NCBI GenBank assembly: GCA_977020255.1
Contig: CDROCS010002560.1
Span: 558,001-622,000 of the forward strand
DNA: 64,000 bases
Source of the DNA: Obrimoposthia wandeli
Lineage: Eukaryota
Reading direction: 5' to 3'
In this document: in pieces, positions 4,270-45,475 of the stretch
Numbering within the stretch: the first letter of the stretch is position 1
Layout of the letters: the number at the start of each line of letters is the position of its first letter
Made by a program: the position numbers and the translations under genes
The notes under the pieces: generated by a model
Databases searched by the model: none
Seen by the model: only the letters and a program-made list of their open reading frames with translations
What the model was told of the DNA's origin: nothing

Positions 4270-4995
4270 ATATCTATTGAGTCGTATTAAATCATGATAC
4301 ATTATACACAAAGCCCTAATAGGACGCTTGAATGTTAAAGCTCTATTTAGTAAGTGTGAAGTTAACTGCTGCCAATATGGGTCTAAAAGAAACAACAAAT
4401 CATCACCAGAAACTGTATCCCATGCATTAGTTGGAAGCTAAAATATGAATCACTGGAAAGTACAGAGGTACGAGATGGTAGTTCGAGAAGTATATGCCTT
4501 GCTTAAACTTGCCCTAAATGACGGAGATACTATTGCCTTGAAGGAAACTACTACGGCGATGAATGACAGTGACTATATTCAGCTAGAAAGACCAGATATT
4601 ACGTTAAAAGACAGAACCTGTATCCACCATGTAGAAATTATAGTTCCCTTTTACAGTAATATGAGTCAAAATAATAGTTACAGCAAAGCAATGGACAAAT
4701 ATCAGAATCTAGTCGAGACTACGCGGAAAGACAATAGTGTTAAGATAGTAGCACTTTATTTCGTTAGAGTAGGGACTCTCGGGTTCTGGAATACCGAGAA
4801 CAGCCAACCTTTCCCGGATTACAAATATTCAGCTGCAGAAAGAAAGAAGATTAAAATACGAATCGCAAGTAAAGTCATAGAACATACTTAAGCCCAGTGT
4901 AATTGCTTTAGACTACATGGAGTTTTAGGAAATGTGAATACAATACCTGATCAAGTAGATGCTCTGACAGCCGAAAAGTTGGAGATGATTGAAAA
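4270..4995 (+). mobile_element. Second RLE-type non-LTR retrotransposon 3' fragment (endonuclease domain and 3' tail), inverted relative to 250-900
   Basis: ORF 4445-4891 has RPDITL..HVEIIVPF..DKYQNL..VRVGTLGFWN (PD..D/E-x-K RLE pattern) and is clearly homologous to ORFs 277-546 and 533-892. The tail ctctgacagccgaaaagttggagatgattgaaaagtg (~4972-5008) matches the reverse complement of ~254-292. Confidence 0.8.
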
Positions 4996-6281
4996 GTGAA
5001 TGTATATATTATAAAAATAAATTACCCAATTAAAATTTCTGACTAATACTTTTTGAAGAAATTTACATACCAGAAAATATAATATTTACTTTTCCAAAAC
5101 TCTGGAAATAATCAGAAAATGCAGTCACTACCTGGGAAACCACAAAGAAGTGTCGAACAAACAATCTCTCCTGGAGATTCATCGGTCCTACATGAAGTAG
5201 AAGACATCTTACGGTTAATTGCTATAGGGAATTTTAGTACCTGTATGTGTTTACTATGCATATAATTTTTATTATCCTTGCTTATCTATTCCATAGTTCT
5301 TCGTCTAAAATTGAAGCAATAGAAGAACCTAGATTATCTATAAAAGCCAGACTGGGATCAGTTTCAAGCTGGAAAGAATTTTCTTCGTATACATAATCAA
5401 GAATATAAAATCCCAAAAATATTTTTTAATTGATGAATATCAGATGTTGTTGAAATTTCAATTAGATAATTATTTTCCACTTTTGATATTTTCATAGAAT
5501 TCATATAATTTGATGCCTTTTTAATATATTACATGGTTTTCCTTTTGAAATTCTTTCCGGATAATGAAAAATATCTTACATATCTCAGAAGCAGATCCAT
5601 TCTATAATAAAGAAATTGATTAAAAACGATGCTTATAAAATATTTAGAAGATACAAATATTATGTAATGAAATTAAATAAAACTGATCACAATTTATTAC
5701 ATGCATAATGAAAGAAACGTGGTTAAAGAACAGAAATAGTTAAAACGTAGGGATATGAACACGGCCAATTTTCCACATAGGTAACTTTGTTCTAATTTCA
5801 TCCTTCTTGTAGCCATAAAGCCGAATTTTTATAGTATATTGCGTCTTTTTTTGGAAACACATGACATCTATTTCTCTTCCATATTCATCTAAAATGCTAC
5901 ATCAGCTCCGCAAATATAAAATTCGTTCTTATTGAATGTAAAACTTGGAACTGCCCTTTCTACTTTCTGTTTAAAATATTGAAAATTTGGTTTTTGAATA
6001 ATTGATAGATAATAGCTTAACTTTCTTCTTTTAATTGTCACAGGATTTACTAAAGCAAATTAGTTTAGCCTTTTTCGAGAATCTGACTTTGTATTTGAAA
6101 TATTGTTTCACTTCTTCATACATAATGCTTGTGATATAATCATTGAAAAATCCATTGAGAGACTAAACATAACTTTAGACAAAACTTTATTCTTTATAAA
6201 ATACGTAAATTCGACCAATAACGATCATAACAATTTTCAATTTTGTTATATTCAACCAAGTTATAAGTTTGTGTTTCGTGC

Positions 6282-11457: not shown

Positions 11458-11769
11458 TGATCTCTGGATGATCTAGAGCTTTTGTCTTCTGAATAATCTA
11501 CCTAGCGACTATTTTTTGAAGATTTTTTGTTAAGTTTATTAGCCTCACTATCATAATTTTAATTACATATTCGGTTTCTTTCGTCGTAGCTTGACGTTGA
11601 ACATCATTAAAGTACACTGGGACTGTTATAACGGCTATTCTTTACTATTTTTCTAAGATAAGCATCTGTCGTCTCTTTCATTTTTATAAATACTATCGGT
11701 GAAATCACTTCTCGAAAAATCATTTTCTGATCTCCTTTATATTCCACTCGAAGTTTCGATTTTTAACTT

Positions 11770-11935
11770 TCATTAACTACTGTAAATGACCAATGTTTCA
11801 TATCACCTTGCACCGAAGAATCTTCAAATTTGTGACCAATTAGTCTTTTGGCATCAAAAACAGTATTATTAGGATTCATTTCAACTTGATTTTCAGCATC
11901 ATCTCCAATACGTCTTTCATTTTTACGCTCTGCTA
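11770..11935 (-). pseudogene. HSP70: Isolated Hsp70 ATPase-domain fragment
   Basis: [49 protein letters not shown] matches the conserved Hsp70/Hsc70 segment; the flanks are not Hsp70-like. Confidence 0.9.
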
Positions 11936-12588
11936 CCATTATTTTGGGTATAATCATGAATGAAATCAATTTACTATTTTAAATTCAAATCAGGGCCATA
12001 CAATCAATAACAGTTTTAATTAATCTCGGGAAACCAATAAATCTTTATAAAATTGCAATAAAATGAAAGAAGAATGCATGTTTGAATCTGAAATTTTCTT
12101 GCACTCAGATATTTGAAGTTTACATCGCTATGTGAAATGTTTTCCCATTGGTAAAGTTATGATATTGGGATTGAGAAATTTGGATTACCAGTAAACAGTT
12201 GAATCAATTTTAAAATATTATTTTATTATATTTGTAATGTTTTTTATAAACAAACCCGTTTAAATTACTAATTGTTTCAAATGAATAATACTATAAATAC
12301 AGACAATGAAGTGGATCATCTGGTCGACGTATTTTTCAGGATAAATTAGGGGTAAACAAATTTTATCAGAATTAAAAAATAATGATATAACAAGAGATAA
12401 CATTGATATATTGGTTAGATCACACGTTATTCGAGAATTTAGAAATCGTACACAAATAAATAAAAGTATAGCCAAATATTCATTAATTAATTTTTGTATT
12501 TCATCTACAATAGCTCTAAAATTGTACATTTCAATAAGGAAACTTCTATGATAGTATAAACAATATTAAAAATGAAAGAGAATATGTA

Positions 12589-13810
12589 ATGGAGCTAAAT
12601 AATAATGCTGTATTTCAAATAGTTGGTCCCAGTGGAAGTGGAAAGACACATTTCGTATGTAAATTGTTGCAAAATTAAACTCTTTTCAATTCTAGTTTCA
12701 AAAATATTTATTGGCATCATGGTGGAGGAGGGGAAAGCAGATTAACCAAAACAGAAGTTTGCAAGTTGAAGGGAATAAAATTTATTGAAGGATTTGAAGC
12801 GAAATGGTTCAAAAGATTGAACAAAGAAGATGTAATAATTAGTGGTGATTTGCATCAGGAAGCTAACAAGAAACCGGAATTGAATAATTTATTTACAAAA
12901 ATTGCAAGACATTCCAAAGTAACAGTTATATTTATCACTCAAAATCTTTTTCACCAAGGAAGTAATCATAAAACAAAAAATCTTTATGTGCATTACTAAG
13001 TATTATTTAAAAATCCAAGTGATCAAACAGTTGTAAATTCTGTGACCAGACAAGCATTTCCCCCATAAAAGAACTTTGTACTTAATACATTCCACGATGC
13101 TGCTAAAAAAAGCACATAGGTATATATTTATCGACTTGACACAATCTTTTCCTGATGATTTACGTGTCTTAAAATATATATTTAATTCTAAGGATGTAAC
13201 TGTTTATAAACAAACAGAGAACAATTATAAAAAAATTATTTGCACCGTATTTTAAGAAGTTGATTCTAAAACGTAAATGTAAAGTAAAGGCAAAGCCTAA
13301 AAATCGAGAATAAGAATCAGTAAGAAAAAATAAGTAAATAAATTAATCAAGTCTGTAATTCGAAGTAAAAGAAAACCTAAATGGCTTCGAATATAAACAA
13401 TATTAAACATGAACCTTTTTAAAACGATTAAAGTACAAAGAAACATACCTTATTTTATTTACATACTCAGTTTTAAAGTACATGGTACCCCCTACCGGGG
13501 GATGAATTAGACCGAACATATTCATCTACTCAATTAATTTGAAAATAAGAAATAAAAAGCAAAAAAATTATAAATATTTCAAAATTTTGATCAGAATTGG
13601 ATCGATGAAATATGTACTATATTTTCAAATTGTTGTAATGGAGAAGAAAGGGTTCAACCCAAAGATCCAAATAGCTACACAGGACTTCCAAATTTTACAA
13701 AAACAAAAAAACAGATATATTTTAACATGTATTGATGTACTTAAAATGTTTGCTCGTGCAGTTCCAGTTAAAGCAGTCTTTAGTTCAGTAAAACAAAAAT
13801 ACATTATGTT
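12589..13810 (+). mobile_element. Polinton/Maverick fragment 1: degenerate packaging ATPase, deleted small ORF and integrase remnant
   Basis: VGPSGSGKT Walker A (~12622-12650), FTKIARHSKVTVIFITQNLF, LFKNPSD; YILTCIDVLKMFARAVPVK (~13720-13775). Paralogous to 16490-17810. Confidence 0.85.
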
Positions 13811-14499
13811 CGTGACTTAATTTCAAATAAAACTCGAAATAAAGTTAAATGAAATAAAATAATTATTAATAAAAATGATTATGTTGATAATGATGTTGCG
13901 GTGATGAGGATTAGGTTGAAAATATGAATAATGTGAATAATAATAATTTATGTATCCATGTTAATGATTGTCATTGATGCATAAAACAATAATTACATGG
14001 TTGCTAATCTAATTAGAAAAATTAACGGAAAAAATAATAATCGAAGAAAGAATCGAAAGATATTTAAATACAAATCAATCAACAATTCTGAAACCATAAA
14101 TCAACCGTCCAGCAACTTCAATCTAACCAGACAAACTACTGATATCATTATCGACAAATCTGTGATAATCCATCCTGCTAATAAACTACAGCTATTCGCA
14201 ATTCTTGATATCATAATACACAAAACCCCCACAATAATTTTGGTGCCCAAATAAAATCAACCGAACAAATGCAACAAAACTCTCTTCAAGCAAACTGAAA
14301 ATTACTTTGGATCGTTAAAGTTTAACCAGGTAACAATTGAATTGCCATTCTATCATAATATTAATATTGATCAATTAAGATTCATCATTATTTTTATCTT
14401 TAAAATCAGTAATAAAAATTATATTTTTTATTTGCAATTGCAATTTACAATTTAAATTGATATACCAGTTATATTTGGAGACAGAATATACAAAATTTG

Positions 14500-14970
14500 C
14501 AATTTATATTTGAAGCAGAATTTACAATTTATATTTGAAGCAGAATTTACAATTTATATTTGAAAACAGAATTTACATTTATATTTGAAAAAATCGAAAA
14601 TTATATTTGAAAGCAGAATTTACAATTTAAATTGATACACCAGTTATATTTGGAAACAGAATCACAAATTATATTTGAAAGCAGAATTTACAATTTATAT
14701 TTGAAGCAGAATTTACAATTTATATTTGAAGCAGAATTTACAATTTATATTTGAAAGCAGAATTTACGATATAAATTTGAAAACAGAATTTACTTTTATA
14801 TTTGAACAAATCGCAAATTATATTTGAAAGCAGAATTTACAATTTAAATTTATACACCAGTTATATTTGGAAACAGAATCACAAATTATATTTGAAAGCA
14901 GAATTTACAATTTATATTTGAAAGCAGAATTTACGATATAAATTTGAAAACAGAATTTACATTTATATTT
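14500..14970. repeat. ~25-bp minisatellite GCAGAATTTACAATTTATATTTGAA with higher-order variants
   Basis: Many direct copies read directly. Confidence 0.9.
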
Positions 14971-15834
14971 GTTAAGAGAATATATTATTTGTCTAGGAAA
15001 TTATTTTGTTATTGCTTAGGTAGATATACCCTAACTTAACATAGCTAGATTCCCTGATCTATTGCTCAATATATCAGTATTTTAAATGATCATTCACCAA
15101 CAAATGAATTGTTCCAAAAACGTAAAAGCAAACAGACCCCTGCTCATTTTTTGTAACTTTTCCTTAAATCTTGATACTTTTGTTAGGATTAGGATTTTAA
15201 TAATTTTCAAAAAATAATTATTTATTTATAAAGGAAAATAAATCCTTGAAGTAAGGTTAAAAAATAAAATAAAATTGAAAACAGAAATTAAAATTAAATA
15301 TAATAGAATGAAAAGTATTTTAGGACCTTGAAGAGGTCAAGTGTTTAATGTGCTGGATATAAAGAAAAGTTTAGGGCCCAAAAAGGAAATCAAAATATTA
15401 ATTAACAATAAGAAAAGCAGTCAGTATCAATTAAGGAGCAAGGGAAAATCTACGATAAACTTGAAGACATAGAAGCACGCTGAGAATCTACCAGTTGCCG
15501 CTGTCTAGTAAGTACATTAATTATTTGACGAGTTTACTGCACTTAGGAGAATTAGAAACAACTACTGGGAAGCAGACAGCTGAATCAATCGCGGAACCTA
15601 CTCAAGCCACTGAAATCGTGACACGCTATATAAAGCAGGAAGAGTCACTCGGGAAAACACAAAAGTTGAAATTGTAGCACGGTCACTCGTTTGGAGAAAT
15701 AGGCGAGTTAAAAGAGTTTTCATAGAAAATCTTTACATTGAATTATAGACGTGATTAATAAAGAAACCAAATTGTATTATCCTAGAAGAGCGAAAGTGTA
15801 TTCTCAATAAAAGAACAGAAGACGTGAAGTAACA
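14970..15834 (+). mobile_element. Possible LTR of an unassigned LTR retrotransposon, followed by a repeat-containing leader to ~16480
   Basis: The minisatellite breaks at TGTTAAG (14970). TATATAAA (~15626), AATAAA (~15757 and ~15806) and ...GTAACA (15834) follow. No TSD or PBS confirmed. Confidence 0.3.
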
Positions 15835-16489: not shown

Positions 16490-16880
16490 AAAAAGATGTT
16501 ATAATAATTGATGATTTGTATCAGAAGGCTAACAAGGAATCTGACTTTAATAATTTATTTACAAAGATTGCAAGACTTCGTGAAGTAACAGTTATATTTA
16601 TCACTCAAAATCTGTTTCACCAATGAGGTCACCATAGAACAAGAAATCTTAATGTACATTACTTAATTTTATTTAAAAATCCTAGAGATCAAATAGTTGT
16701 TGATTTTGTGGTCAGACAGGCATTTCCTCAAAATAAGAACTTTCTAGTTGATTCATTCCACGATGCTGTTAACAAGCACATGGGTATATATTTATTGACT
16801 TTACACAAGCTTACCCAGATGATTTATGTGTTTTAACCGACATATTTAATTCTAAGGGAGTAACTGTTTATAAACAAATA
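16490..16880 (+). pseudogene. Polinton packaging ATPase, C-terminal half
   Basis: IIDDLY (Walker B)..FTKIARLREVTVIFITQNLFHQ*..LFKNPRD..RQAFP; in-frame stop; Walker A half missing. Confidence 0.85.
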
Positions 16881-17033
16881 GAGAACAATTATAAAAGATA
16901 AATTTACAATGCCTTTTAAGAAGTTGATAGTAAAACGTAAAGTAAAATCTAAGAAATCAAAATAAATAATCATTAAAAAAAACAGGTGAAAAAATTAATC
17001 AAATCTGTAGTTAGAAATTTAAAAAAAAATTAA

Positions 17034-17408
17034 ATGGCTTTGAATATAAACAATATTCAAATTAAACCTTTTTATTAAAATGAAGAAAATACAAAGAAGC
17101 ATACCCTATTTTAAAGCTTTAGTCAAAGCCTCTTCTAATAAGAGAATGATTATTCTTAAAGCATTTATATCTTTTGTTGTAGATGATTTATTGGATGTTT
17201 TGTATAATATATTTTTGGGTCGAGTAAAAGTTGAAAAACGGTAAAATATATTAAAGAAATAAAGAAATAATTTTCTAGATATTTCTAATGTAAAAGTAAA
17301 AAAAAGAAACGAAATATTATTCTTAAACAGAATGGTGGTTTCATAGGGGCTGTTATTCCAGTTGTTGCTTCAATTATCAGTAGTATTATAGCTGCGACAC
17401 GTTCATAA
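17034..17408 (+). pseudogene. Small conserved Polinton ORF ending in a QNGGFIGLLFPVVASII hydrophobic tail
   Basis: Lies between ATPase and integrase; the basic stretch plus QxGGF-hydrophobic tail is typical of Polinton core-like proteins. Frameshifted. Confidence 0.55.
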
Positions 17409-18527: not shown

Positions 18528-19560
18528 ATGTATATGGTTTTACCTAGTAACGGATGTCCGAAGACTCAACCAGATAATTACGCTAGTAGCTTTATTATCG
18601 ATTGGGAAAATTCTATAAATCTCCAAGGAGAATGGGAAGCGGCTTTAACAGAATTTTCTTTTTATTATTCTCCAATTACTATAAAAAAACTCACATATTT
18701 CGTTTACAAAAGAAGTTGATCATGAAAATCAATTGAAGTTATGATTGGGTTTGATAGTAAAGGAAAATTATATTACAATTGTATAGATAAAGAAGTGAAA
18801 GTAATTTATGAAAAAAACAAAGTCAGATTTAAAAATCGACTAAAACCTTTTTCAAAACCTATTCAAATTATATTTGGATCTAATAGAGAAGCTCTTCAAT
18901 TCGGTTTTGACAGTGTACATGTAGTAGGTATGAAGAGATCTGATATAGCCTCATTTAAATCGTTTAAAAATGTTCCTGATAGAGTAACAAAAGTGTTTTT
19001 AAGTTGAAACGAGACCACAGTATGTAGTGGAACTGAAAATGTTTTCAAAAGATTATATATTAAATAGTGAAGTGAATTTCTGTAAATTAATACAGAAGGA
19101 ATTTAGTGAATTTTTCGATAAATGTGTAACATTAAAAAATGGTAAAATAACGTTTACAGTAAAGAGCAATATAAAACGAGTTTCATTTGATGATAAACTC
19201 GCTAAAAACCTTGGTTTAAACAGAAATACATTTGAAACCCATACAATAAAAACCATAAAAGCTAAAAATAAGGCAAAACTTTTATATGTTGTAAAGCATT
19301 TATATATTTATACTAATTTAATAGAATCAACGCTTGTAGGAGGACAGCGAGTTCCACTTTTGAGAACAATATGGATATCTAAAAAGGAAACTAGAGATGG
19401 GGACGCTGTCGGTATGTGTATAGATCAACCAATGTATCTTCCAGTTTCTCTCTTTTCTATAAACAATATTGAAGTAAATATTAGAGATGATTCCGGACAA
19501 CTAATAGATTTCACGTACGGGGCCAAGAAAACAAAATGGCGAATCCAGCAATAATTGAAG
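18528..19560 (+). pseudogene. Polinton minor capsid (penton-like) protein
   Basis: N-terminal YMVLPSN..NYASSF..LQGEWEAALTEFSF and C-terminal LYIYTNLIE..VGG..PLLR..PMYLPV..IEVNIRDDSG; broken into three ORFs. Confidence 0.85.
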
Positions 19561-20862
19561 CTTATAGTCAAAGCCAACAAGGTGGAGAATTACCATATTT
19601 TGTTGGTAAACAATATGGATCTGGCTGGCTTAGAACATTAGGTAGATTTGACTTTCCTCTTTTAAAGAGACTCGGGTGATTTATATCAAAATAAGAAAGG
19701 ATTACCTTTCATCTAAGGACAATAAACTAATACCAATTTTTAAGAGCATGCACTTGATGAACTTAGTAGGTAGATGTGGCACTTCTGGCACAAAGCCCCA
19801 CACCCTGAGGACAAGTTCAGGTCAAATTGAGGACAAAAAATCTAGGTCAAGTGAGGACAAAAATTTTGAGGTCAACTTAAAGTCACGGTGAGGTCAAGAT
19901 GTGGGTCATGACCTCATGAGGTCATGGGAAAATCTAGGTCATGACCTCATAAGGTCACGGGCATGTCCTCATGAGGTCATGGGGGAAATCTAGGTCATGA
20001 CCTCATAAGGTCAAGGTCATCGGAAAAATCTAGATCATGTCCTCATGAGGTCAAGGTCTAGGTCATGAGCTCATATGCTAACTATGAGCCCAAGGTTATT
20101 TTCAAGATTCATGAGCCCATGTGCTCACTATGAGCTCATGTCATGAAAGATAGACATTTAACCACATCATCTAAAAGGATTATTATTAATCAATTATAAA
20201 TAGATGATTATTCAAATAATGTTTGAAAAAACACAATAGAGGGACAATAATCAATAGATATTTGCTCTTCTATTGTGTTTTCTAAACATATATAATCGAA
20301 TTAAATCAACAAAAATAAACCTTACTCGATATTGGGAGCAGCAGCAGCATAAAATATAAATAAAATAAAAATTTACCTGAATACTGCAGCTAAATCCAAT
20401 TCAGCAGCAGAACTGTTTATATTCACCGCACACATAGTCCAATACAAGCCAGAGAAAATCTCTGCCTTGTATTGAAGTGTACAGTAGGGAAGAGAAAATC
20501 ACACACTTACACAGATGTGATTTACAAATAATTACAAATAATTACACTTATTTGCAATATTTGTACACGTGACGTGCTTTGTCCCTTTGTGAATTATTTC
20601 TTTTCACATGTTGAGGACATGAGTCTTTCAAGACAACGACTATGAGTACATGGTTACTCACTCTAAAACTTTATTATTTCAAAATCAATTACTTTTAAAA
20701 CAAAGTAATAAAAAATGTACAAAATTTATTTACCTAAATTAAGCTATGTAAATTCCATCTAATATGTTTTCCATTTGCTTACATCACCAATACATGTGTG
20801 TGTGTGTGTGAATAATTAGACAGATGTTGACACTTGGAAACAGAATTAAATGTATGTATGTA

Positions 20863-21904
20863 TGTTGGGTCTTTAATTAAAATTAAATTAATTAAGAAAG
20901 TCAATTTAAATTGACATTTTATAAACTAATCTAAAGTGCCCACAATTAGGGAGGTTTTTCAAATTTCAGCCTCCGACGGGTTGTTAGCCCGTTTCGCCCT
21001 GCCGGGCTCTTCAGGAAGGCGGCTATTTTTTGATAAGAAATAAAAAGTGGTTTTGACCACCAAAGATTTTCCGCCCAGTCTCCCAGCCTAGCAGCAGATC
21101 TTCGCTACCGGGATTTTGCGGATCGGGTTTTTGACAATCTGCCAATGTGTCCAACCGGCCACCCGACCATTCGCCATCACCGTCGACATAGTTCTGCACC
21201 CAGTCGCTATCTGCAGCCGATCTGATTTTCGCCTACCCAACCACCCAACTAACAATTCTTCACTTTGGCGACAGTACATGCCATTTACTCTCTCGGTCGG
21301 CCCTCTTTTCCCAATGCGGTCTCACCTTCATCTCTTTGCTGACATTAATTGGAAAGTTACGGTTTCTTTATTTCTATTTTGAATCCCCATTTTAAATGTT
21401 CTATTGTGTATCTACAATTCCCCGGATTCGCCCCTTTCTTTTTCTGTGTGTGCTTATTCAAATTTATCTATTACTTTAGCTGTTATGTTCGAATATTTGG
21501 TGTGGAAGTGCAATACCGGGCGACCGATTTCTATTGGGTTTGGCGTGATCTGTAGGCGAATCAACTTCTAGTGTCTCCAGTTGACATTTGGACGATTGCT
21601 ATTTATAGCAATCGTCGTGTCGATTTTGATAATAAAATTATTAGCAGTTAAAAATTTGTCTTATTGATTACAAATTATAACATTTGTTTCTACAAATAAA
21701 AATTCTTAATTTATTAACTTATCAATTGTATGGAAAATATATGATAAACACAAAACAAATTTACTTGGATTTTTGATCGTTCCTGATAAAAAGTATTTTG
21801 GAATTGGATTTTTGATCGCTCCTGTTGAACGAAACACAAAAAACAAATTTACTAGGATTTTTGATCGTTCCTGTTGAAAAGCAATATCCTCAAAAACTAT
21901 AACA
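20863..21904 (-). mobile_element. LTR-like unit A carrying a hammerhead ribozyme; 4-bp TSD TGTA
   Basis: Ends are TGTTGGGTC...CTATAACA, with TGTA at 20859-20862 and 21905-21908. The opposite TIR arm (~26790-26830) shows the empty site. Confidence 0.85.
20969..21020 (-). ncRNA. Type I hammerhead ribozyme (copy A)
   Basis: Minus strand GCCUUC-CUGAAGA-GCCC(GGCA)GGGC-GAAAC-GGG(CUAACAA)CCC-GUC-GGAGGC has the full core and three paired stems. Predicted cut at 20974/20975. Confidence 0.9.
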
Positions 21905-22494
21905 TGTATGTATATGTAAACATATTTGATTACTAGTAGATTAACAAATACATCAGATGACATCCCTTGCACGTATATAAAATAAAGTTTAATCATGAAT
22001 GTATGCATGTGGGTATGTTTGTATGTAAAGCTTAATCATGTATGTATGTGTAACTACATCATATCAATAAATTTGTTTTAATGCATCAATTCCAATGCCC
22101 GAAAATTCAAATATATGTTTGTTATGGTTACAAGTATTTGTGATTTTTGCTACATCATAACAAGATATATTTACTAAAATGTGGACATAACTTCATCTTC
22201 TCTTGTCATCTAATGTTTTCTAAAGAAACTATGTAATCTTAGATGTTAAACTGAAATTAAAAATAGATCAATATTCTACATGTTATTGATTACAGATATT
22301 AAATCTCGATTAAGGTATTGATATTTCTAATGTAGAATTGAAACTTGGAATATATATATCATAAAACTACTAAGGTTATTCATAATAATTTATCAATATA
22401 ACTTGTATTCATAGATTTTATCATGCTTACAAAGTGTTATGTATTACTATCATTAGAAAATTATAGCTAAAGTAGATATCAAATATCAAATATC

Positions 22495-22762
22495 AACCTT
22501 TCTCCACAACCAATTCTCCCGAGTACGCCAAGATCATTCCAAGGTCATTCCATTCTTTTGTTTAAATGCATCATTTTTGGTGCTTTTCAAAATTTCATAA
22601 TTTATTTTTGGCGCCAAAAATATTTTTGAAATTTTGAATTTGGCGCCAAAAATAAATTATGAAATTTTGAAAAGCACCAAAAATGATGCATTTAAACAAA
22701 AGAATGGAATGACCTTGGAATGATCTTGGCGTACTCGGGAGAATTGGTTGTGGAGAAAGGTT
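22495..22762. repeat. Perfect fold-back, ~124-bp arms with ~20-nt loop
   Basis: 22495-22618 is the reverse complement of 22639-22762, with no mismatch seen. Confidence 0.95.
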
Positions 22763-22840
22763 AGGGTTATGGGTATGGCTTAGGGTTAGGGCTATGGCTG
22801 GGGTTAGGGTTAGGGATATGGGCGTGGTTAGGGTTAGGGT
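22761..22840 (+). repeat. Degenerate telomere-like (TTAGGG)n tract
   Basis: GGTTAGGGTTATGGG..TTAGGGTTAGGG..GGGGTTAGGGTTAGGG..GGTTAGGGTTAGGG. Confidence 0.85.
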
Positions 22841-22963
22841 GCTTTATAATTTGAGAGTTTCATTATGTCTTATTCATATATCCTTATATAGAACTCACAC
22901 GAGATATAAACAAAATGAGTAATTATAACATACATTTATGAATACAACCAAACAAATCCTCAA

Positions 22964-22993
22964 CCAATCATGTGAGGTTAGATAGAATATAAA
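22964..22993 (+). promoter_or_regulatory. Putative CCAAT (22964) and TATA (22988) promoter of the central ORF
   Basis: CCAAT, then TATAAA ~30 nt before ATG 23020; AATAAA at 23540 lies just after the stop. Confidence 0.4.
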
Positions 22994-23019
22994 CAATTCA
23001 GCCATTATTTCTGATCACA

Positions 23020-23523
23020 ATGTTGATAAACATCGAGAAGAAGATAGCAATATCAGTGAAGAGGATCAATTCCATTGCATTGAAGAAAAGAAGCAAGAAA
23101 CAGTCTATGGATTTTATTAAACAATTAGATATCTTCAGTGATCTCATCAAATTGAAGAAACCGAAATTTCAAGATCCTTATCATAAATTCGTATGGGATA
23201 TGTATTTACTTGAAAATCCTATAACATACCACTTCTCCAATCATGTCAATGTAACGAAAATCAAGTTTGACTATATCATCAGAGATATCTATGAAGAAGA
23301 TGTTATACAATTGAATGAACTCATGCAACAATTGGATATTGGATATAAAATCCATAGAAATTCTATATTGGTGAGAGCTGATGAAGGTATTTTTGCAGAT
23401 TATTGGAATGTTGAAAAGGATATGAAAAATGGAAAATGGACTCTATTCATAATGATTCAAGGATTTATGACCAAATGTGATGGAAGTTTAAAACCTATAT
23501 GGAAGATTACGAAGGATGTATAA
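23020..23523 (+). CDS. Uninterrupted 167-aa ORF of unknown function in the spacer of the non-autonomous element
   Basis: Open, non-repetitive protein-like composition, flanked by TATA and polyA signals. It is the only long ORF between the arms. No family recognised with confidence. Confidence 0.55.
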   Translation: MLINIEKKIAISVKRINSIALKKRSKKQSMDFIKQLDIFSDLIKLKKPKFQDPYHKFVWDMYLLENPITYHFSNHVNVTKIKFDYIIRDIYEEDVIQLNELMQQLDIGYKIHRNSILVRADEGIFADYWNVEKDMKNGKWTLFIMIQGFMTKCDGSLKPIWKITKDV

Positions 23524-25019
23524 TGTTATAGAAATTAATAATAAATATTTATGTTTTATCTTACGAATTTATGTCCAAATATAGACATATGCACATGCAC
23601 CAACTTCCCTTGTTCTTGTTATCCAATTAGAAGCTTGCAATATTTAGTCAATACTTGCATCAACCAATCAGAACATGGACATCTTTACATATATTATGTG
23701 TAAATATAAATATGTTCAGCAACTCTCCATAAACATCTTAACCACCATGAGATTTTCCTCTTCTTAACCCTATAAAATAATCTATTTTTAGTAACATTGT
23801 ATCATCTATTCTTATTGGTTAATCTGAGTCTCAGTTTTATATAAACAAAGATATATTTAAATAAACATGTAAGCTGATTTATAGCAACGTCATCATATTA
23901 TTCATGGAAACTCAAGAAGAAAAATCCAATATTATGATGTCATTTTCCGGAATATCAATGGATCAATGTCTACCCAACTGAATTACAATGGAATATACAA
24001 GATTGCACCCTGTGGCTTAGTGACTTCTGTTTGGACTCTATGGAATTAACTAATAAAGGTACGTATTTTCTCCTTTATATTTATTAATATTTTATAAGAA
24101 GTTCGAAAGTTAAGGATATATTGATGCGAATATTGATATTTATTGAATTAGATGATTTATGAAACGCTAGTAATGAATAGTAATATCTTAATAAAATGGT
24201 GAGAAACTATGCTATCTTTAGAAATATTAAACCTAGCCCCTAGATTCAATAATCAGTAGCTACTTGATAAAATAGATTAATCAATAAAATAGTTATGATG
24301 AATTATTGTTAAGGTTTTATTAGGATTTACAACATGTGTTATGATATAGATGAAATATGTGTATTATCGATAATTTTGGTATAAGATTCTTTGTATGCGA
24401 GCTTGTATGATAATCAAAACATCTAAGTCTTCTCTATATTTAACTATATTATTCCATTTTATAGTTTAAATCTCAATGACACATTAGAAAAATCATTATT
24501 CCTATTATCAACCACTTTATGATGGTTGATGATAGTGAGATTAGATGTTGATAATATTGATAAGTTCAGTTTTTCAATAATCAATATGTATGGAAATATA
24601 TGAATTTATGGTATTTGGTAATTTCTCTGAAAGTTAGGGATGAAAGTTTTTGAAAGAAGATTCATGATAGAGATGTTAGAAGATATGGATAGATATGTCT
24701 CGATTTATTGATTATTAGATTCATTCTTATAAAATTTCCAATGTTTTCCTTTACACCCTAACCTGATTATCTAACTCAAAAGTCTTAATATCTTAGTTTT
24801 TACAACAAAATGTTTAAAGTTAAACAACTACAACGTTGAATATTTTAAACAACTGCAACGTAGAATATTTCAATCAATCAACATTGATGTATAAGTAATG
24901 TTAAATTATGTCTGTTATTTAAAAAACATCATTTATGAATGCTTTAATGAAAGAGGTAGGGTTGATATTGGTCTGATTCTATGCTATTCTTTCCTTAAAC
25001 CCTAATACTTGTTATATTT

Positions 25020-25440
25020 TTTCATCTTAAACCTCTTAACATCCATGAGATTATCGTAACTACCACGTTATTTTCCTCCTTAAACCTCTCAACTTCCATG
25101 AGAATTCCCTAACTACTGGAAGATTTCCCTAATTACCATGAGATTTCCTCAACTATCATGGGATTATGCTAACTTTCATGTTATTTTCCTCCTTGAACCG
25201 CTCAACTTCCATGAGAATTCCCTAACTACTACAAGATTTCCCTAACTTCCATTAGATTTTCCTATCATGGGATTATCCTAACTTCCACGTTATTTTCATC
25301 CTTACACCACTCAACTTCCATGATATTTCCCTAACTTCCACGTTATTTTCCTCCTTAAACCATTCAACTTCCGTGAGAATTCCTTAACTTCCACGTTATT
25401 TTCCTCCTTAAACCACTCAACTTTCACGTGAGTTCCCTGT
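25020..25440. repeat. Degenerate ~40-bp tandem repeat (TTTTCCTCCTTAAACCACTCAACTTCCATGAGAATTCCCTAACT-like)
   Basis: Repeated units read directly. Confidence 0.8.
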
Positions 25441-26999
25441 TTCTCTTCTAGAAGCATCTAAATATTGTAAATTTTCTGAACATATCATTAATTTCCTGAA
25501 CACATCAATACTTTTAGAACATAATATAGAACATATAGTTGTTATTATGATAAACAATATCGATGTAAAATTGAAAAAGATAGAGATGTAATGATTAATA
25601 ATAATTAGAGTTTTGTATATACCTTGTATTTCTAGTAAGTATTCAGACATACATGCATACACACACCCAATAGTCTCTATGTTCTATTTTTTTTCTTGTT
25701 CTGTCAGCTTGTAAATTTTTGTAAGTATTCATACATACACACATATTACTATAGTCTAAGTTTAATATTCCCTGCTCAAGCAATCTACCAACAATCAGAA
25801 GACAGTCCAGTGGATTACTATACTCCAATTTCTCTCAGCTAAGTTTACTATGAGTTTGCTTGTTCAATCAATCTTCCACCAATCAGAATACACTCCAGTG
25901 GATTACTATTCTCCGTCCTTCTAGGTATGTTTACTATATTTGCTATACGTTGATTCTACCCCGTTGATATTTAGTATCTACTTTAGCTATAATTTTCTAA
26001 TGATAGTAATACATAACACTTTGTAAGCATGATAAAATCGATGAATACAAGCTATATTGATAAATTATTACGAATAACCTTAGTAGTCTTATGATATATA
26101 TATTCCAAGTTTCAATTCTACATTAGAAATATCAATATATTAATTGAGATTTAATATCTGTAATCAATAACATGGAGAATATTGATCTATTTTTAATTTC
26201 GGTTTAACATTTGAGATTACATAGTTTCTTTAGAAAACATTAGATGAGAAGAGAATATGAAGTTATGAAGAGATAAGATGAAGTGATGTCCACATTTTAG
26301 TAAATATATCTTGTTATGATATAGCAAAAATCACAAATACTTGTAACCATAACAAACATATATTTGAATTTTCGGGCATTGGAATTGATGCATTAAAACA
26401 AATTTTTTGATATGATGCCAGAAATCGTCTCCTCCCTAAAGCCAAGCGCCGGCTGGTCGCCGTAGTACTTTCTTTAGAAAAGTGGATGAATATGGGAATT
26501 GCTGCGATTTATTGCAGGAATTAGCCGTTGACACCCCGAAATCCCGGGACACTCTAGTTATGATGGTGATCAATGGTGTAAAAACTGGCGACTAACCCCT
26601 CGTCATGGTTTCGAACTGACGATTAACTGCCATTTATAATTAGACGTGCTTATGGTGAAAGGTCAACACATACATACGTGATTAAGCTTTACATACAAAC
26701 ATACACACCCGCATACATTCATGATTAAACTTTATTTTATATACGTCCAAGGGATGTCATCTGATGTATTTGTTAATCTACTAGTAATCAAATATGTTTA
26801 CATATACATACATACATACATTTAATTCTGTTTCCAAGTGTCAACATCTGTCTAATTATTCACACACACACATGTATGGGTGATGTAAGCAAATGGAAAA
26901 CATATTAGATGGAATTAACATAGCTTAATTTAGGTAAATAAATTTTGTAAATTTTTTATTACTTTGTTTTAAAAGAAATTGATTTTGAAATAATAAAGT

Positions 27000-27790
27000 T
27001 TTGAAGAAAATAAGTTTTTGAGGAAAATAGGTTTTTGAAGAAAATAAGTTTTTGAAGAAAATAAGTTTTTTGTAGAAAATAGGTTTTTGAAGAAAATAAG
27101 TTTTTGAAGAAAATAAGTTTTGATAAAAAAATTTCAGAAGCAAAAATTTTCATGTACAAAAGTTTTTGGTGAAAATGATGTACAAGTAATTTAAAAACTT
27201 TTTAATTTTGGCGCCAAAATGTTTTGAAAATTTAAACAAAAATTATTGAAAAAATAATTTTTAAACGTTTTGGAAATAATAAATTTTTGAAGGTTTTGAA
27301 CCCTTGAAGGTGTACCCTCGAAGGTCTAATGAAAGTCAGATCAATGCTATTAAATATATAACTTTGAAAAGTAGAAAAATACATTTTTGAAGGGTTTGGA
27401 CCCTTAAAGGTTAAGCCTCAAAGGTCTGAGTAAGTTTTGATCAAGCCTATTATATATAACTTTGAAAAGTAGAAAAATAAATTTTTGAAGGTTTGAACCC
27501 TTGAGGGTTCACTTTTGAAGGTTTTAGACCCTTTGAGAGAACCCTATTCGAGTAACCATATTAAAGAATAAGCTCAAAGTAGCAACTCGAAGAATCAGCA
27601 ATAATAAGTACCTTAAAAGAAGCAACTCAGAGAATTTCCTTAAAAGAAGCAACTCAAATAACTTCCTTAAAAGAAGCAACTCAAATAACTTCCTTAAAAG
27701 AAGCAACTCAGATAACATCCTTAAAAGAAGCAACTCAAATAACTTCCTTAAAAGAAGCAACTCAAATAACCTGCTCAAAGAAGATCCATC
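27000..27790. repeat. Tandem-repeat block present only in the right arm: ~17-bp AAAATAAGTTTTTGAAG array, ~100-bp units and 27-bp AAAAGAAGCAACTCAAATAACTTCCTT array
   Basis: Arrays at ~27000-27130, ~27280-27530 and ~27605-27775; absent at the corresponding left-arm position (~20664). Confidence 0.85.
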
Positions 27791-27932
27791 AAGAGTGAGT
27801 AACCATGTGCTCTTAGTCGTTGTCTTGAAAGACTCATGTCCTCAACATGTGAAAAGAAATAATTCACAAAGGGACAAAGCACGTCACGTGTACAAATATT
27901 GCAAATAAGTGTAATTATTTGTAATTATTTGT

Positions 27933-28006
27933 AAATCACACACTTACACAGATGTGATGAAAATGTCACGTGACATTTTCATCACATCTGTGTAAGTGTG
28001 TGATTT
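27933..28006. repeat. Perfect 74-bp palindrome within the right arm
   Basis: AAATCACACACTTACACAGATGTGATGAAAATGTCAC|GTGACATTTTCATCACATCTGTGTAAGTGTGTGATTT. Confidence 0.95.
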
Positions 28007-28999
28007 TCTCTTCCCTACTGTACACTTCAATACAAGGCAGAGATTTTCTCTGCCTTGTATTGGACTATGTGTGCGGTGAATGTAAACAGTTCTGCTGCTG
28101 AATTGGATTTAGCTGCAGTATTCAGGTAAATTTTTATTTTATTTATATTTTATGCTGCTGCTGCTCCCAATATCGAGTAAGGTTTATTTTTGTTGATTTA
28201 ATTTGATTATATATGTTTAGAAAACACAATAGAAGAGCAAATATATATTGATTATTGTCCTTCTATTGTGTTTTTTCAAACATTATTTGAATAATCATCT
28301 ATTTATAATTGATTAATAATAATCCTTTTAGATGATGTGGTTAGATGTCTATCTTTCATGACATGAGCTCATAGTGAGCACATGGGCTCATGAATCTTAT
28401 GATAACTTTGGGCTCATGGTGAGCACATGAGCTCATAATCTTGAAAATAACCTTGGGCTCATGGTGAGAACATGAGCTCATAACCTTGATGATAACTGTG
28501 GGCTCATGGTGAGCACATGAGCTCATAATCTTGAAAATAACCTTGGGCTCATAGTGAGCACATGAGCTCATAATCTTGAAAATAACCTTGGGCTCATAGT
28601 TAGCATATGAGCTCATGACCTAGACCTTGACCTCATGAGGACATGATCTAGATTTTTCCCATGACCTCATGAGGACATGCCCTTGAACTTATGAGGTCAT
28701 GACCTAGATTTTTCCCATGACCTCATGAGGTCATGACCCACATCTTGACCTCACCGTGACCTTAAGTTCACCTCAAAATTTTTGTCCTCAATTTGACCTG
28801 AACTTGTTCTCAGGGGGGGCTTTGTGCCAGAAGTGCCACATCTACTTACTGAACTTGATAATGTTTTTACTGAAGTTGCTAATTTGATTAGAAAAGGTAA
28901 TTCAAATGAAACCCAAGGAGGTAGTGGATTTAAACGTAAAAATAAGCAAAAAATCAATATAAACAAACGTAAGAAAGTTGAAGGAACAATATTTGCAAA

Positions 29000-30050
29000 A
29001 TGAGTTGCGCCAAAACCGAATTGTGTATTTTTGATAAACCACTTCCACAAGTAGTTGTAGATAATGCTTCCTTTGAAGAAATATTTCTAGTTAACTCTGT
29101 TTCAGGAACCACTTTAACCTATTTAGAATTTAATATTAATGGTTCCAATAGCGAGTATTTAGATTTGAAGGATACTTTGCTTTATGTTCAAATAAAAGTA
29201 TTAAATAGGGATGGTACTAATTTAGAGGAAAATGCAGATGTAACACCTGTAAATTATCTCTTTAATTCTTTATTTAGTGATGCCATTGTTACTCTTAATA
29301 ATGTCAAAATTGAAGGTGGAAATTCTTCCTATGCTCATAATGCTTTGATTGAAAGTATTTTGAATTATAGTACTGATACTCAAAATACTAATTTGGCAAC
29401 CATTGGTTATGATAAAACGGTTGCAACTCGCAAATAATGGATTGCAGGTTCTAAAGCTTACGAAATGTGTGGGTCTTTGAAATTGAATTTCTTTGAACAA
29501 CCGAAATATTTAATTCCCGGTGTTAATGTACATCTTCGTTTGAAACGCAATAAATGGAATTTTTCTTTGATAAGCACAGACGTTCTAGAACCTAAACTTG
29601 ATATTTTGGATGCAAAATTGTATGTCCGAAGAGTTAAAACCGAACAATCAGTTTTAATGGCATATAATATAGGAATGGAAAAAACAATGCTTGTTATCCT
29701 ATTAGAGAAACTAAACTTATATTCTATTCTTTAGGTACGTATACACAAGCTTTTAATAAGGATCAAATTTTTGGTGATGTAAGATTACCGAAATTCATTT
29801 TAATTTCTTTTCACAAAACTGCAAAGTTTCTAGGAAATTATACAACAGATGCAACTCAATTTGACAATCTTAATGTAGGTTCAGTGACACTTTCAAGAAA
29901 TACTGATTATCGCGAAACAAATAAAACAGATTTCGAAGGAAACGCTTATGCTTTCAAAGCAGCTTTAACACATCCTACTACGGTGCTTATATACGAAGTA
30001 TTTGATTCGGAAATACAAATCAATAAAAACAGAACTGTCATATTATAGAA
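29000..30050 (+). pseudogene. Polinton major capsid protein (double jelly-roll), decayed
   Basis: MSCAKTELCIFD..LEFNINGS..YLDLKDTLLYVQIK..NSLFSD..FFEQPKYLIPGVNVHLRLKRN..LYVRRVK..VLIYEVFDSEIQI; contains stops, frameshifts and an apparent internal deletion. Confidence 0.9.
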
Positions 30051-35620: not shown

Positions 35621-35830
35621 TCTTAGGGAGCACTATGAGATTTTCAATTTTAAAAGGTGTTAAATGGGGTTAATTAGTTTTTAGGGTGTTGGGCGGGTTG
35701 GGGAGGTAGAAAATTTCACTCCACACACACATACACGAAACGTCCCTCCACACACATACACGGTTTTAAAGGACAGTGGTAGCTCCCCGGGCGGGGGGAG
35801 GCTGTATTAGACCGGACACATCCCCCTACT

Positions 35831-38930: not shown

Positions 38931-40564
38931 TCTTTTTGTTGCAATTTACGAATTGGTTTTAGAAATTATATCAAATCTCTCTATACTAAAAAAATTTATA
39001 TTTTTATTTCAGTCGTAAGTGACATTATATAAATTTGCAGACACACATACTTAAACACACATATGGACGCACTATACAGATAGAGGCAGTAAAATAACAT
39101 ATGTGTGTTTGTGGTGCACTTAAAATTGCACTGTAAATAAAATCGATAATGGATGCAATAATTCCTTTTGTGTTATCTCCTTCATCGCGGGCAATTTTTC
39201 CATCGCGAAGCAAAAGATAAAATCTGGTCATCGCTGTCTTAAAAAATCGCTTTTCGACTGTGGGCACTTTGATAAATTAATTTAAATCTTCAATTGGCAT
39301 ATTTCAATTGCCAACATTAGTAAATATAGTTAGTTTAATGTTTACTTTAAAAAATTAAAATAATTACTACTCACTGTTAGTTTCTAAAAAATTCAAAGTT
39401 TATCAACAAAATAAAACACTTGTAGATCAGCTTTTGTGTAGAAACTGCTGTACATGTATACATTTTCTTATTTTGTTAGAATCACGAAACTGTTATTAGA
39501 GTAACGGCAAATACTATTCCACAAATAGCGGTTTCCTAACATTGCTTCGATAAGATCAATGTAGTAAGTTTGAATTTTGATGAGATATCATGGGATTTTG
39601 TAAAAAAATCAGATCATAGTTGAGATGAACACAAAATTACTTAGAATCAATTATTGGTTTAATGTATCTGATGATATACTGTCGGAGAAAACTATGGTTT
39701 TCCAGTTTGTGAAATTGATGTAAGGTTAACTGGTTCTTCAAATCAAGTGTAGCTTATTTCCTTTTTCATGAGCTGTCAATGAAAATAAAATTCCACATGG
39801 CTCAATTGTCAACTTTCTCTTTGCCAAATGCCTCCATTTCTTTGATTTTCTTAAACTGTTTTTTTTGTAATATTATGAAATCTTTATCCTCTTATATGAC
39901 TTGCCTTCAAAATTGGTTTTCATAGAATTTGTTTTTTAAAATATCTATTTACTGCTTTACTTGTTTCTATAGAATGTTTCTCTTAAAAATTATTCGACAA
40001 TGAAATTTAACTAAATATATTGAAACCCGGTGAATAAACCCCACCAATTTTAACCAAAATTCGTGTCAAAATTTTGGCTTTCTTTAAACTTATTTAAAAT
40101 ATGAAACCTGAAGATTATATTTTAGTGGGGTTTAACAGTTTGTAAAGCAGAAATATTTATTTACGAAAATCAATGTTTTGAGATATTTTTGTTATGATTT
40201 ATTATTTTTCAACATGGTAAATATTAATCAATTTTATTGATTAATTTTGACATCTTTGATTTTCATCAAATTCGTTTAATAACTATATTTTCTGAAGTTT
40301 ATACAAAATTATAAATGTGTTATCTCTGAATGGTTTTATTATATTCTCCAAATTAAATATTTATTTTTGTAAGCATAAAATTTTCCAATTCATATATTTG
40401 TAAGCATAAAAATTTTCAATTCATATATTTGTAAGCATAAAAGTTTTCAATTCATATATGTTGGGTCTTTAATTAAAATTAATTAAAATAAATTAGTCAA
40501 TTTAAATTGACATTCTTTAAAATTATCTAAAGTGCCCACAATTAGGGAGGTTTATCAAATCTCA

Positions 40565-40616
40565 GCCTCCGACGGGTTGTTAGCCCGTTTCGCCTTGCCA
40601 GGCTCATCAGGAAGGC
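40565..40616 (-). ncRNA. Type I hammerhead ribozyme (copy B)
   Basis: Minus strand GCCUUC-CUGAUGA-GCCU(GGCA)AGGC-GAAAC-GGG(CUAACAA)CCC-GUC-GGAGGC; stem II carries a compensatory C-G to U-A change relative to copy A. Confidence 0.92.
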
Positions 40617-40874
40617 GGCGAAAAAAGCGGTTGATAAAAGGGATTCTTATCATAAAAATATTACCGCCCAGTAGCAGCGACCTATTCCCTTCATGATCAT
40701 CCGGAGAGGCAACAACCTTCTATCATCCTCTCGGCAACATTCAATCATCCCATAATCCCTACTAATCTCCCCGCCGGCCAGGCGCTACCTGCCGTGGACT
40801 TTCAGCCAGCAGTGCAGACAGCGACTACATCTCGATGCAATTTCCCTCTGGCTGAAAACCAACAACGTGACAGC

Positions 40875-41305: not shown

Positions 41306-42135
41306 TGAATTTATAGATCAGTCTGCTGATCCTATACAGACAACTCCAATTTAATTTTATCGTAAAACATTTCGATTGGTCGATATTACCAGATAAAAAT
41401 ACATGTGTCTATGTCCCTATATTGGCATGCCCTCGCCTGTCCCTCTCACCAATGTCACTGCACACCCCTGCCTTCTCCTTCAGTCAATCTGACATTTGGG
41501 CGATTGCTATTTATAGCAATCGTCGTGTGGATTTAGATCAATCAATTCTCATTTTTACAAATTTGTCATTTCAGTTTTCATTAACACAATTATTATTGCC
41601 AAGAATTTGAAATTTATATACAATTTGACTTGAAATTTTGATTATATTTTATGCCCACGAAGTTGAAATTTATATCCAATTACAAATTATAACATTCAGT
41701 TTTCATTAACACAAAAAATATATATCAATTAGAAAACGATTCAATTGGAATTTATCGGGATAACAATTTAAACATTTAAAGAGTTTTAATTATCAAAGAG
41801 AAGAAAAACGATTCAATTGGAATTTATCTGGATAACAATTAAATATTATTGGAAAATTTATTGATCAGTCATTACTAATATAACCTTCGGATCAGTCTTT
41901 TCAATTATAACATATATTTGTAAGCATAAAAGTTTTCAATTCATATATTTGTAAGCATAAAAGTTTTCAATTCATATATTTGTAAGCATAAAAGTTTTCA
42001 ATTCATATATTTGTAAGCATAAAAGTTTTCAATTCATATATTTGTAAGCATAAAAGTTTTCAATTCATATATTTGTAAGCATAAAAGTTTTCAATTCATA
42101 TATTTGTAAGCATAAAAGTTTTCAATTCATATATT

Positions 42136-44911: not shown

Positions 44912-45475
44912 ATGTCCATATCAATAGAAACCTTGCAGGAAGAAGTTGCATATTTAAAAAGTGAATTAGATCATGTAAATGAATTGAAAAATGAATCAGC
45001 CACATATGGACTTAGTTTATTAGAAGATAATGAAATTCTTCGAAAGAAATTGTACCAAAATGAGCAATCTTTAGGTGATCTGAAATATGAAAATGAAGTT
45101 TATAAGAAAGAAGTGGAAGATAAAAGTAAACTTTTGAGAAAAGCAAGTGTGGTAGGCATTGAAGAAGAAGACGAGATAATGATTCATTCTTCGAATATGG
45201 AAAATCAGCTACGAGACCGAATTAGAGATCTGGAAATAGAATTACGGACAGTGAAAGGAAATTACCAGAGACAAATGGACGACAATGATAAATTTGCCCA
45301 GCAACTTTTGGAAAAAGAGACTCAGTTAACTGAGTACGATAAACAGCGCAGAGAATTGCGAAATGAGATAAAGAATTTGAAAAATAAAGAGACTCAAATG
45401 ATATCAGACAACAGTGATTTGGCAGAAGAAAATTTATTTCTTCAGAAGCAAGTTTTACAGCTGAGAAAAACTCAG
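44912..45475 (+). CDS. BicD: BicD exon 1
   Basis: N-terminal coiled coil; donor CAG|GTAAGT at 45476. Confidence 0.9.

Follow-up and report, generated by a model that had tools for sequence, protein, structure and literature searches.

The insertion and its host

The window analysed here is a stretch of 64,000 nucleotides from Obrimoposthia wandeli (assembly GCA_977020255.1, contig CDROCS010002560.1, positions 558,001 to 622,000 of the forward strand); positions are those of the window unless a contig handle is given. It contains a decayed Polinton of a family termed A here, which is interrupted at 19765-28850 by a 9,086-bp element of a different family, termed N. The element starts with AGTAGGTAGATGTGG and ends with CCACATCTACTTACT, and is flanked on each side by an exact GAACTT, a 6-bp target-site duplication (TSD). 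The features of the locus are as follows, with the strand given where one was assigned.

5287-35830: decayed family-A Polinton, with ATPase (twice), rve-chromo integrase, a capsid cluster, genes resembling those for single-stranded DNA (ssDNA)-binding proteins (SSBs), and pPolB on the minus strand
19536-19764, plus strand: 5' portion, with a stop of its own at 19677-19679, of the host gene that the insertion splits; this gene lies between the minor- and major-capsid-like genes
19759-19764: left TSD copy GAACTT, single in 8/8 uninterrupted sister copies
19765-19926, plus strand: left terminus, 94% identical over 162 bp to that of a gene-bearing Polinton family, B, with subterminal repeats of 16-56 bp after it
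19765-20865, plus strand: outer left arm, an inverted copy of 28850-26806 with deletions
20858-21903: private insert in the left arm, absent from other N copies, with pieces also at 40454-40619 and 41490-41567
21904-22489, plus strand: inner left arm, an inverted copy of 26813-26666 and 26417-25964
22495-22762: near-perfect hairpin of 268 bp (124-bp arms, 100% complementary) on a GGCGCC-repeat region
22759-22840, plus strand: degenerate TTAGGG-like repeats, longer in other copies
23020-23523, plus strand: 167-aa open reading frame (ORF) of a Polinton accessory gene family, with a predicted oligonucleotide/oligosaccharide-binding (OB) fold of the ssDNA-binding type of T7 gp2.5 and African swine fever virus (ASFV) CP312R
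25019-25438: 53-bp tandem array in the spacer, of a length that varies between copies
25964-28850, minus strand: right arm and right terminus, in agreement with the usual N arm; contains tandem arrays of 17, 100, 27 and 45 bp
28851-28856: right TSD copy GAACTT, matching in sequence
28851-29003, plus strand: 3' part of the interrupted host gene, whose stop overlaps the ATG of the major-capsid-like gene

Uninterrupted copies of the host family were located by BLAST of each flank (an earlier fuzzy 30-mer search for empty sites gave none). All eight in which both flanks lie close together have one GAACTT only at the matching site, which indicates that the hexamer is a genuine target duplication and that the element was truly inserted. 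The proposal of the initial annotation that one Polinton lies in another, bounded by an exact 6-bp TSD, is thereby confirmed, as are its AGTAG/CTACT-type ends: AG...CT termini, in the form AGTAGG/AGTAAG, are present within the terminal inverted repeats (TIRs) at both ends. Among the short contigs listed from four sequencing runs, none spans the left junction, a result that speaks neither for nor against the insertion.

Excision of the element had been thought to restore an open frame, and this is true in part. The frame of the right flank does end in a TGA (29001-29003) that shares bases with the start codon (ATG at 29000) of the major-capsid-like gene, but the left part, from the ATG at 19536, stops after 47 codons at 19677-19679, upstream of the insertion; the host gene is therefore broken independently of it. 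A 125-aa frame of the interrupted gene is present in four of the eight uninterrupted sister copies. The neighbouring genes, judging from their position and motifs, are presumably those for the minor and major capsid proteins.

The host carries its SSB-like accessory genes at 5287-6124 and its right terminus, AGTAGGGGGATGTG, at 35830; its left terminus was not found within the window. Pfam names only the ATPase, rve, chromo and pPolB pieces, mostly below the cut-off. Stops or frame shifts affect the ATPase, integrase, minor capsid, major capsid and pPolB genes, in addition to the stop in the interrupted gene. Family A is the most diverged of the three families A, B and N, and its termini differ from those of N. 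The suggestion that the insertion had knocked out a helper is unsupported, because the invaded element has different ends and many other breaks; on these grounds, and for its greater age, A was rejected as a helper of N.

Three further observations concern family A. The host ATPase region is duplicated (12824-13457 and 16490-17113, 80% identity) around a 25-bp array at 14494-14971. A 71-aa frame at 11763-11978 on the minus strand, which on its motif resembles a fragment of an Hsp70 gene, borders a 5.8-kb interruption of the host. Elsewhere in the genome, miniature elements with family-A ends and TSDs occur at C1989:150244-150425 (182 bp), C2663:47065-47534 (470 bp) and C315:56468-57874 (1,407 bp).

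Family N, its ends and its arms

A search of the 1.35-Gb genome with a terminal pattern of 30 letters gave 4,557 exact matches, and the reversed pattern, used as a control, gave 0; most sampled ends that carry the pattern belong to family B, and the remainder to family N. A 24-mer of the N arm has 605 exact matches and a 24-mer of the N ORF has 347, including a tandem array, so that family N comprises several hundred copies; 59 distinct insertion flanks mark it as a dispersed multi-copy family. Where no other element is nested inside it, an N copy is 5.3-13.4 kb long. The genome search with the terminal sequence that the initial annotation proposed thus yields hundreds of copies, and its expectation of 6-bp TSDs in them agrees with 13/16 paired N-ended copies (the TSD is exact in 11 and has one mismatch in 2; the others comprise 2 with inverted flanks and 1 with none). 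The 13 pairs with B ends only, among which two rows are duplicates of one insertion, comprise 11 with an exact TSD, 1 with one mismatch, 0 with inverted flanks, and 1 with none. Copies of the N ORF differ pairwise by 1.6% (57 copies, a sample biased to best matches) and those of the N arm by 4.3% (63 copies); the corresponding figures are 2.4-3.4% for genes of B (18 and 8 copies) and 4.7-5.4% for those of A (8 and 10 copies). The ages of the three families, as far as these sequence differences measure them, overlap.

Some N loci are rearranged. At C209:133666-142406 and C522:62472-73488, paired N ends have outer flanks that are mutually inverted in place of a TSD, and at C209 the mirror continues past the termini. 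At C924:134730-150199, at least 18 matches to the ORF motif recur every ~565 bp, forming a tandem array of part of the N core.

The ends of N connect it to B. Beyond the 162 bp given above, the two families share subterminal repeats to ~360 bp, after which no DNA similarity was found, whereas N and A have only the first ~14 bp in common. Family B, the gene-bearing partner with the same ends that had been looked for, measures 13.8-16.5 kb and has frames for ATPase, integrase, capsid and pPolB, all of them split into several pieces in the copies seen. When 125 ORF pieces of families A and B were compared with the element, no pPolB, integrase, ATPase or capsid similarity was found, in keeping with the earlier description of the spacer, and the sole gene-length match region was 23143-23520; the ORF list and these pieces together gave none of the capsid proteins, ATPase or protease of an autonomous Polinton. 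Derivation of N from B by internal deletion was considered and rejected, as DNA similarity stops within ~360 bp and the ORF is 26% identical to its B homologue. The view that N is non-autonomous, Polinton-ended and moved in trans is therefore supported by the missing core genes together with the family, TSD and partner checks.

Chimeras join N to B directly. At C52:587449-600641, an N arm and core are joined to the ATPase half of B within one TSD, TACACA; C47:173707-181510 holds a similar N-B chimera bounded by one 6-bp TSD; C194:460213-473564 is an N palindrome with 750 bp of the B integrase at its centre, again within one 6-bp TSD; and C276 contains a further N-B chimera. Family B is the likely helper of N on this sequence evidence: from the shared ends, the TSDs, the chimeras and the Polinton scheme as outlined in parts of one account (PMC8097293), we infer that the pPolB and integrase of B would act on N.

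The element has structural traits of foldback transposons, namely long modular TIRs, internal tandem repeats and variable length, and its long modular arms with internal tandem arrays resemble Tetris as described in part of PMC4079207. However, an ordinary foldback transposon, moved by an unrelated transposase and bearing AGT ends by coincidence, would not be expected to have a 160-bp terminus 94% identical to that of a gene-bearing Polinton family, a 6-bp TSD as in B, chimeras with B genes, and a Polinton gene as its only ORF. That explanation is largely refuted and appears very improbable.

A third Polinton family, D, has 26 exact ends in the genome, of which 7 adjoin N-like DNA (four of these 7 are perhaps one duplicated insertion). 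At C632:115931-132519 and C5665:29053-38805 (L322, L323, L347, L348), N-type arms and core stand between D ends, an arrangement that suggests end swapping. Separately, a second and different Polinton-type terminus occurs ~200 bp inside some B or N ends (L216:1030, L220:1041, L225:8586).

The arms of the element at this locus are more complex than the ~1.7-kb TIRs first described. Five blocks of 81-97% identity, together about 1.7 kb of the left arm, do align in inverted orientation with the right arm. Both arms are interrupted, however, the left by a 1-kb insert and the right by arrays, and they span 2.7 kb (19765-22489) and 2.9 kb (25964-28850) around a spacer of 3,474 bp. The hairpin and TTAGGG-like repeats of the spacer had been overlooked. 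In many N copies the GGCGCC-repeat region is the junction of the core with the left arm or with other DNA.

The left arm of N is an inverted copy of its right end that stops at differing points between copies; in the longest case the result is a full palindrome of 13 kb whose centre falls in the ORF. Comparison of a 370-bp stretch in 9 elements gives a median difference of 0% (0-3.6%) within an element, from arm to arm, and of 8.2% between elements, and in 7/9 elements the nearest relative of an arm is the other arm of the same element. Arms of variable extent that are best matched within each copy suggest, at the level of sequence, fold-back copying; such copying during strand displacement would account for both the own-arm identity and the variable stops. 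That five of the nine elements show 0% arm difference could point to inverted arms created by assembly. In the element studied here, however, arm divergence amounts to 1.6%, with indels and private inserts in addition, the TSD is exact, and the same build recurs on many other contigs with different flanks; the arms are therefore not an assembly artefact, an explanation that we find scarcely credible.

The gene in the spacer and the nesting of Polintons

The spacer had been taken to contain no gene of note, and the accessory ORF at 23020-23523 was overlooked. Its 167-aa product has no match in Pfam, Atlas or word-indexed protein searches. Its homologues are small genes located near the left ends of B (26%), A (two paralogues, 19%) and other Polinton families of this genome (22-28%); the gene family is present in at least five Polinton families here. 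A profile search of 1.84 billion representatives recovered 96 proteins at E 0.001; for 10 of these outside homologues, 12 members are listed, none with an informative name. A search of a viral library placed giant-virus proteins on top (E 6e-4 to 1e-2), with baculovirus SSBs and ranavirus p31K lower.

A structural model predicted from a 10-row alignment has a predicted local distance difference test (pLDDT) score of 73, whereas the fold from the single sequence (pLDDT 40) was unusable. When coiled-coil rows on the N-terminal helix are excluded, the best match of the model is ASFV CP312R (Z 6.3, root-mean-square deviation 4.0, 125 residues aligned), followed by T7 gp2.5 (Z 5.6, 3.3, 99), DUF2815 (Z 5.3, 2.9, 90) and Enc34 SSB (Z 4.9), with many OB folds below. 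ASFV CP312R is called an ssDNA-binding protein in part of PMC10136805. The 167-aa protein is alike in predicted fold to CP312R and to T7 gp2.5-like SSBs as partly described in PMC4889955 and PMC10136805, but is only 4-10% identical to them. All four gp2.5-type Z-scores are below 8, no sequence profile ties the ORF to an SSB in searches of Pfam and of PDB sequences with both alignments, and the protein ends a few residues past its last strand, lacking the acidic C-terminal tail typical of many phage SSBs according to part of PMC4889955. Foldseek of the model against PDB gave no match at E 0.001. Because of the Z-scores and the missing profile support, we regard the product as no more than a fairly likely SSB, on the strength of the predicted model.

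Most sampled N copies have lost or broken the gene, and the frame is whole in 20 of the 46 full-length ORF copies. Distinct codon variants among copies number 21 synonymous and 87 other, a synonymous share of 0.19 as compared with the 0.25 expected; selection on the ORF among copies was therefore rejected and the variation looks neutral. The gene thus appears dispensable in cis.

In a quick protein tree, in which 44/81 inner branches remain open, the ORF groups not with its B or A homologues but with that of another family (L137; support of 95 in the Shimodaira-Hasegawa-like approximate likelihood ratio test). This grouping, and the existence of more Polinton families in the genome, would fit an origin of N as the internally deleted remains of a further, unsampled autonomous family. 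However, in 20 stretches around long N-armed elements and at the other sampled N loci, the core genes found are 83-100% identical to B proteins or come from nested A, the sole exception being a short 55% pPolB-like piece in C276, and even the nearest homologue of the ORF is less than 30% identical. An origin of this kind is rather unlikely.

Insertions into other Polintons are not peculiar to N. The background was estimated from 300-bp windows compared with A, B and N references in 40 stretches (L116-L155) picked by a fixed rule: 248/1,320 windows (18.8%; bootstrap 10.8-27.9%) are Polinton DNA, a share far above the copy numbers reported for vertebrates. Flanks lie in Polinton DNA at 20/59 N insertions (34%; 14 in A, 6 in B and 39 in neither), 14/45 B insertions (31%) and 13/41 A insertions (32%), and the Fisher test gives p 0.83 for N versus B and p 1.0 for N versus A. 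This flank sample mixes best-match and contig-order lists and includes the present locus; it excludes repeated instances of a single 25-bp flank, the second end of each pair, any end with less than 200 bp of flanking DNA, and 4 ends whose family was unclear. As a control, 2/28 flanks of a family represented in the window by a decayed element with 46-bp TIRs at 58428-59559, which we take to be mariner-like, lie in Polinton DNA. Family A also inserts into N (C220, C315 and C35).

A parasite that homes in on Polintons and disables them, perhaps through integration into helper DNA replicating alongside it, would agree with the excess of N flanks over random windows (binomial p 0.004) and over the mariner-like control (p 0.008). 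However, B and A enter Polintons at the same rate as N, p rises to 0.19 against the upper bootstrap bound of the background, more than twice as many flank matches fall in A as in the likely helper B, A enters N in turn, and the mariner-like control may predate the Polinton burst. We consider such a parasite unlikely; N-specific targeting and a preference for the helper family were both rejected on the equal rates, and the enrichment inside other Polintons that the initial annotation expected is no trait of N. The nesting seen here is likely a near-chance event in a genome of which about one-fifth is Polinton, although all Polinton ends together lie in Polinton DNA in 47/145 cases, ~1.7x the background and above the mariner-like control (p 0.005). 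Polinton landing is thus not purely random, with clustering, age or target bias as possible causes.

A probable helper-dependent Polinton family

Taken together, family N is probably an abundant non-autonomous Polinton family that has the ends of B, is replicated and integrated by B, has formed fold-back arms, and in this case sits in an unrelated, broken Polinton. The protein-primed polymerase of B would start at the shared ~160-bp ends, and the B integrase would insert the product. During strand-displacement copying, the nascent strand would switch template to itself or to a co-replicating Polinton, often near the GGCGCC-repeat/hairpin region, and such switching could yield left arms of any length, full palindromes, N-B chimeras and swapped ends. 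The single gene is predicted to encode an ssDNA-binding protein inherited from another Polinton lineage.

Several points weigh against this account. Mobilization of N by B was not observed directly, and 3/16 paired N copies have no 6-bp TSD. Other helpers are possible, since A, B and D all share their first 14 bp, and some N-type DNA bears D ends. With no similarity between N and B past ~360 bp, an unsampled autonomous parent is possible as judged from sequence. The first 160 bp of B show the own-arm trend more weakly (3.7% versus 7.0%, 8 elements), and assembly polishing could inflate own-arm identity and the zero values.

More tentatively, N may be a long-lived satellite lineage with an interior and SSB gene of its own, the gene stemming from a different Polinton lineage, and with arms rebuilt by fold-back copying, which changes its helper by swapping ends with the family that replicates alongside it (B or D) and possibly travels in helper capsids.

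To our knowledge, Polinton replication has never been watched directly. The hundreds of gene-poor N copies would mark the minimum required in cis as ~160 bp of end, and the fold-back arms, chimeras and swapped ends would form a record of switches of template from one linear genome to another replicating beside it; this record speaks for a strand-displacement stage outside the chromosome. In so Polinton-rich a genome, nesting as such is unremarkable.

The Repbase entry Polinton-1N1_DR is non-autonomous, and Kapitonov and Jurka are reportedly the source, in 2006, on non-autonomous Repbase Polintons. Such elements presumably resemble N in having Polinton ends, lacking core genes and being moved in trans; features of N to be set beside them are that only its ends are common with its likely helper, an interior of its own, one diverged accessory gene, fold-back arms and chimeras. 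Snap-back (copy-back) defective viral genomes depend on a helper, keep the terminal sequences and have variable mirror arms that arise by template switching. N is similar in all three respects, but is integrated and heritable and has an interior unrelated to its helper.

Vertebrate Polintons are 13-25 kb when intact and have a 6-bp TSD, TIRs of 46-1,447 bp, an (AGT)2 start and a median of eight copies, according to parts of PMC8097293. Like these, the families here have AGT...ACT-type ends, a 6-bp TSD and TIRs, and B falls within the same 13-25 kb; in contrast, N lacks core genes, starts with AGTAGG instead of (AGT)2, and has arms that span 2.7-2.9 kb at this locus and extend to 6.5 kb in a sister copy, and copy numbers reach hundreds to thousands. 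The zebrafish element Polinton-1N1_DR is named in part of PMC9341505, and Tlr1 is regarded as a non-autonomous Polinton in part of PMC5499653. Butterfly polintons that lack polB and carry cargo are mobile and have ~2-kb TIRs (bioRxiv 10.1101/2025.02.07.637071, in part), but keep capsid and other core genes, of which N keeps none. For the anole, the absence of non-autonomous Polintons was remarked (PMC3014272, in part). Tetris foldback elements are similar to N in being non-autonomous, with modular long TIRs, tandem repeats and many rearranged forms (PMC4079207, in part), but N has Polinton ends and 6-bp TSDs, so that its likely mover is an rve integrase with pPolB.

Literature searches gave no paper on a high-copy fold-back Polinton satellite, although Repbase entries and subscription papers may already hold such families, and none on a Polinton OB-fold SSB; a term search of PMC11161782 gave no mention of SSB or OB-fold, and PMC8502044 does not mention non-autonomous, defective or satellite forms. 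Parts of PMC6431247 and bioRxiv 10.1101/2024.01.15.575659 were also consulted. Non-autonomous Polintons are thus already known, and N is an abundant, probably helper-dependent family among them that has an interior distinct from that of other families, arms of fold-back type, chimeras and a likely SSB gene. According to part of PMC4889955, a generalisation of 2016, SSBs of protein-primed viruses are unrelated to OB folds; the accessory gene would, against this, give Polintons an OB-fold SSB of the T7/giant-virus type.

Elsewhere in the window, a ~500-bp inverted repeat (292-810 and 4302-4808, 84%) encloses an intron-less ORF on the minus strand (2698-4029, 443 aa) for a ubiquitin C-terminal hydrolase (Pfam UCH, E 1e-21), and exons of a Bicaudal-D gene occupy 44912-60665.

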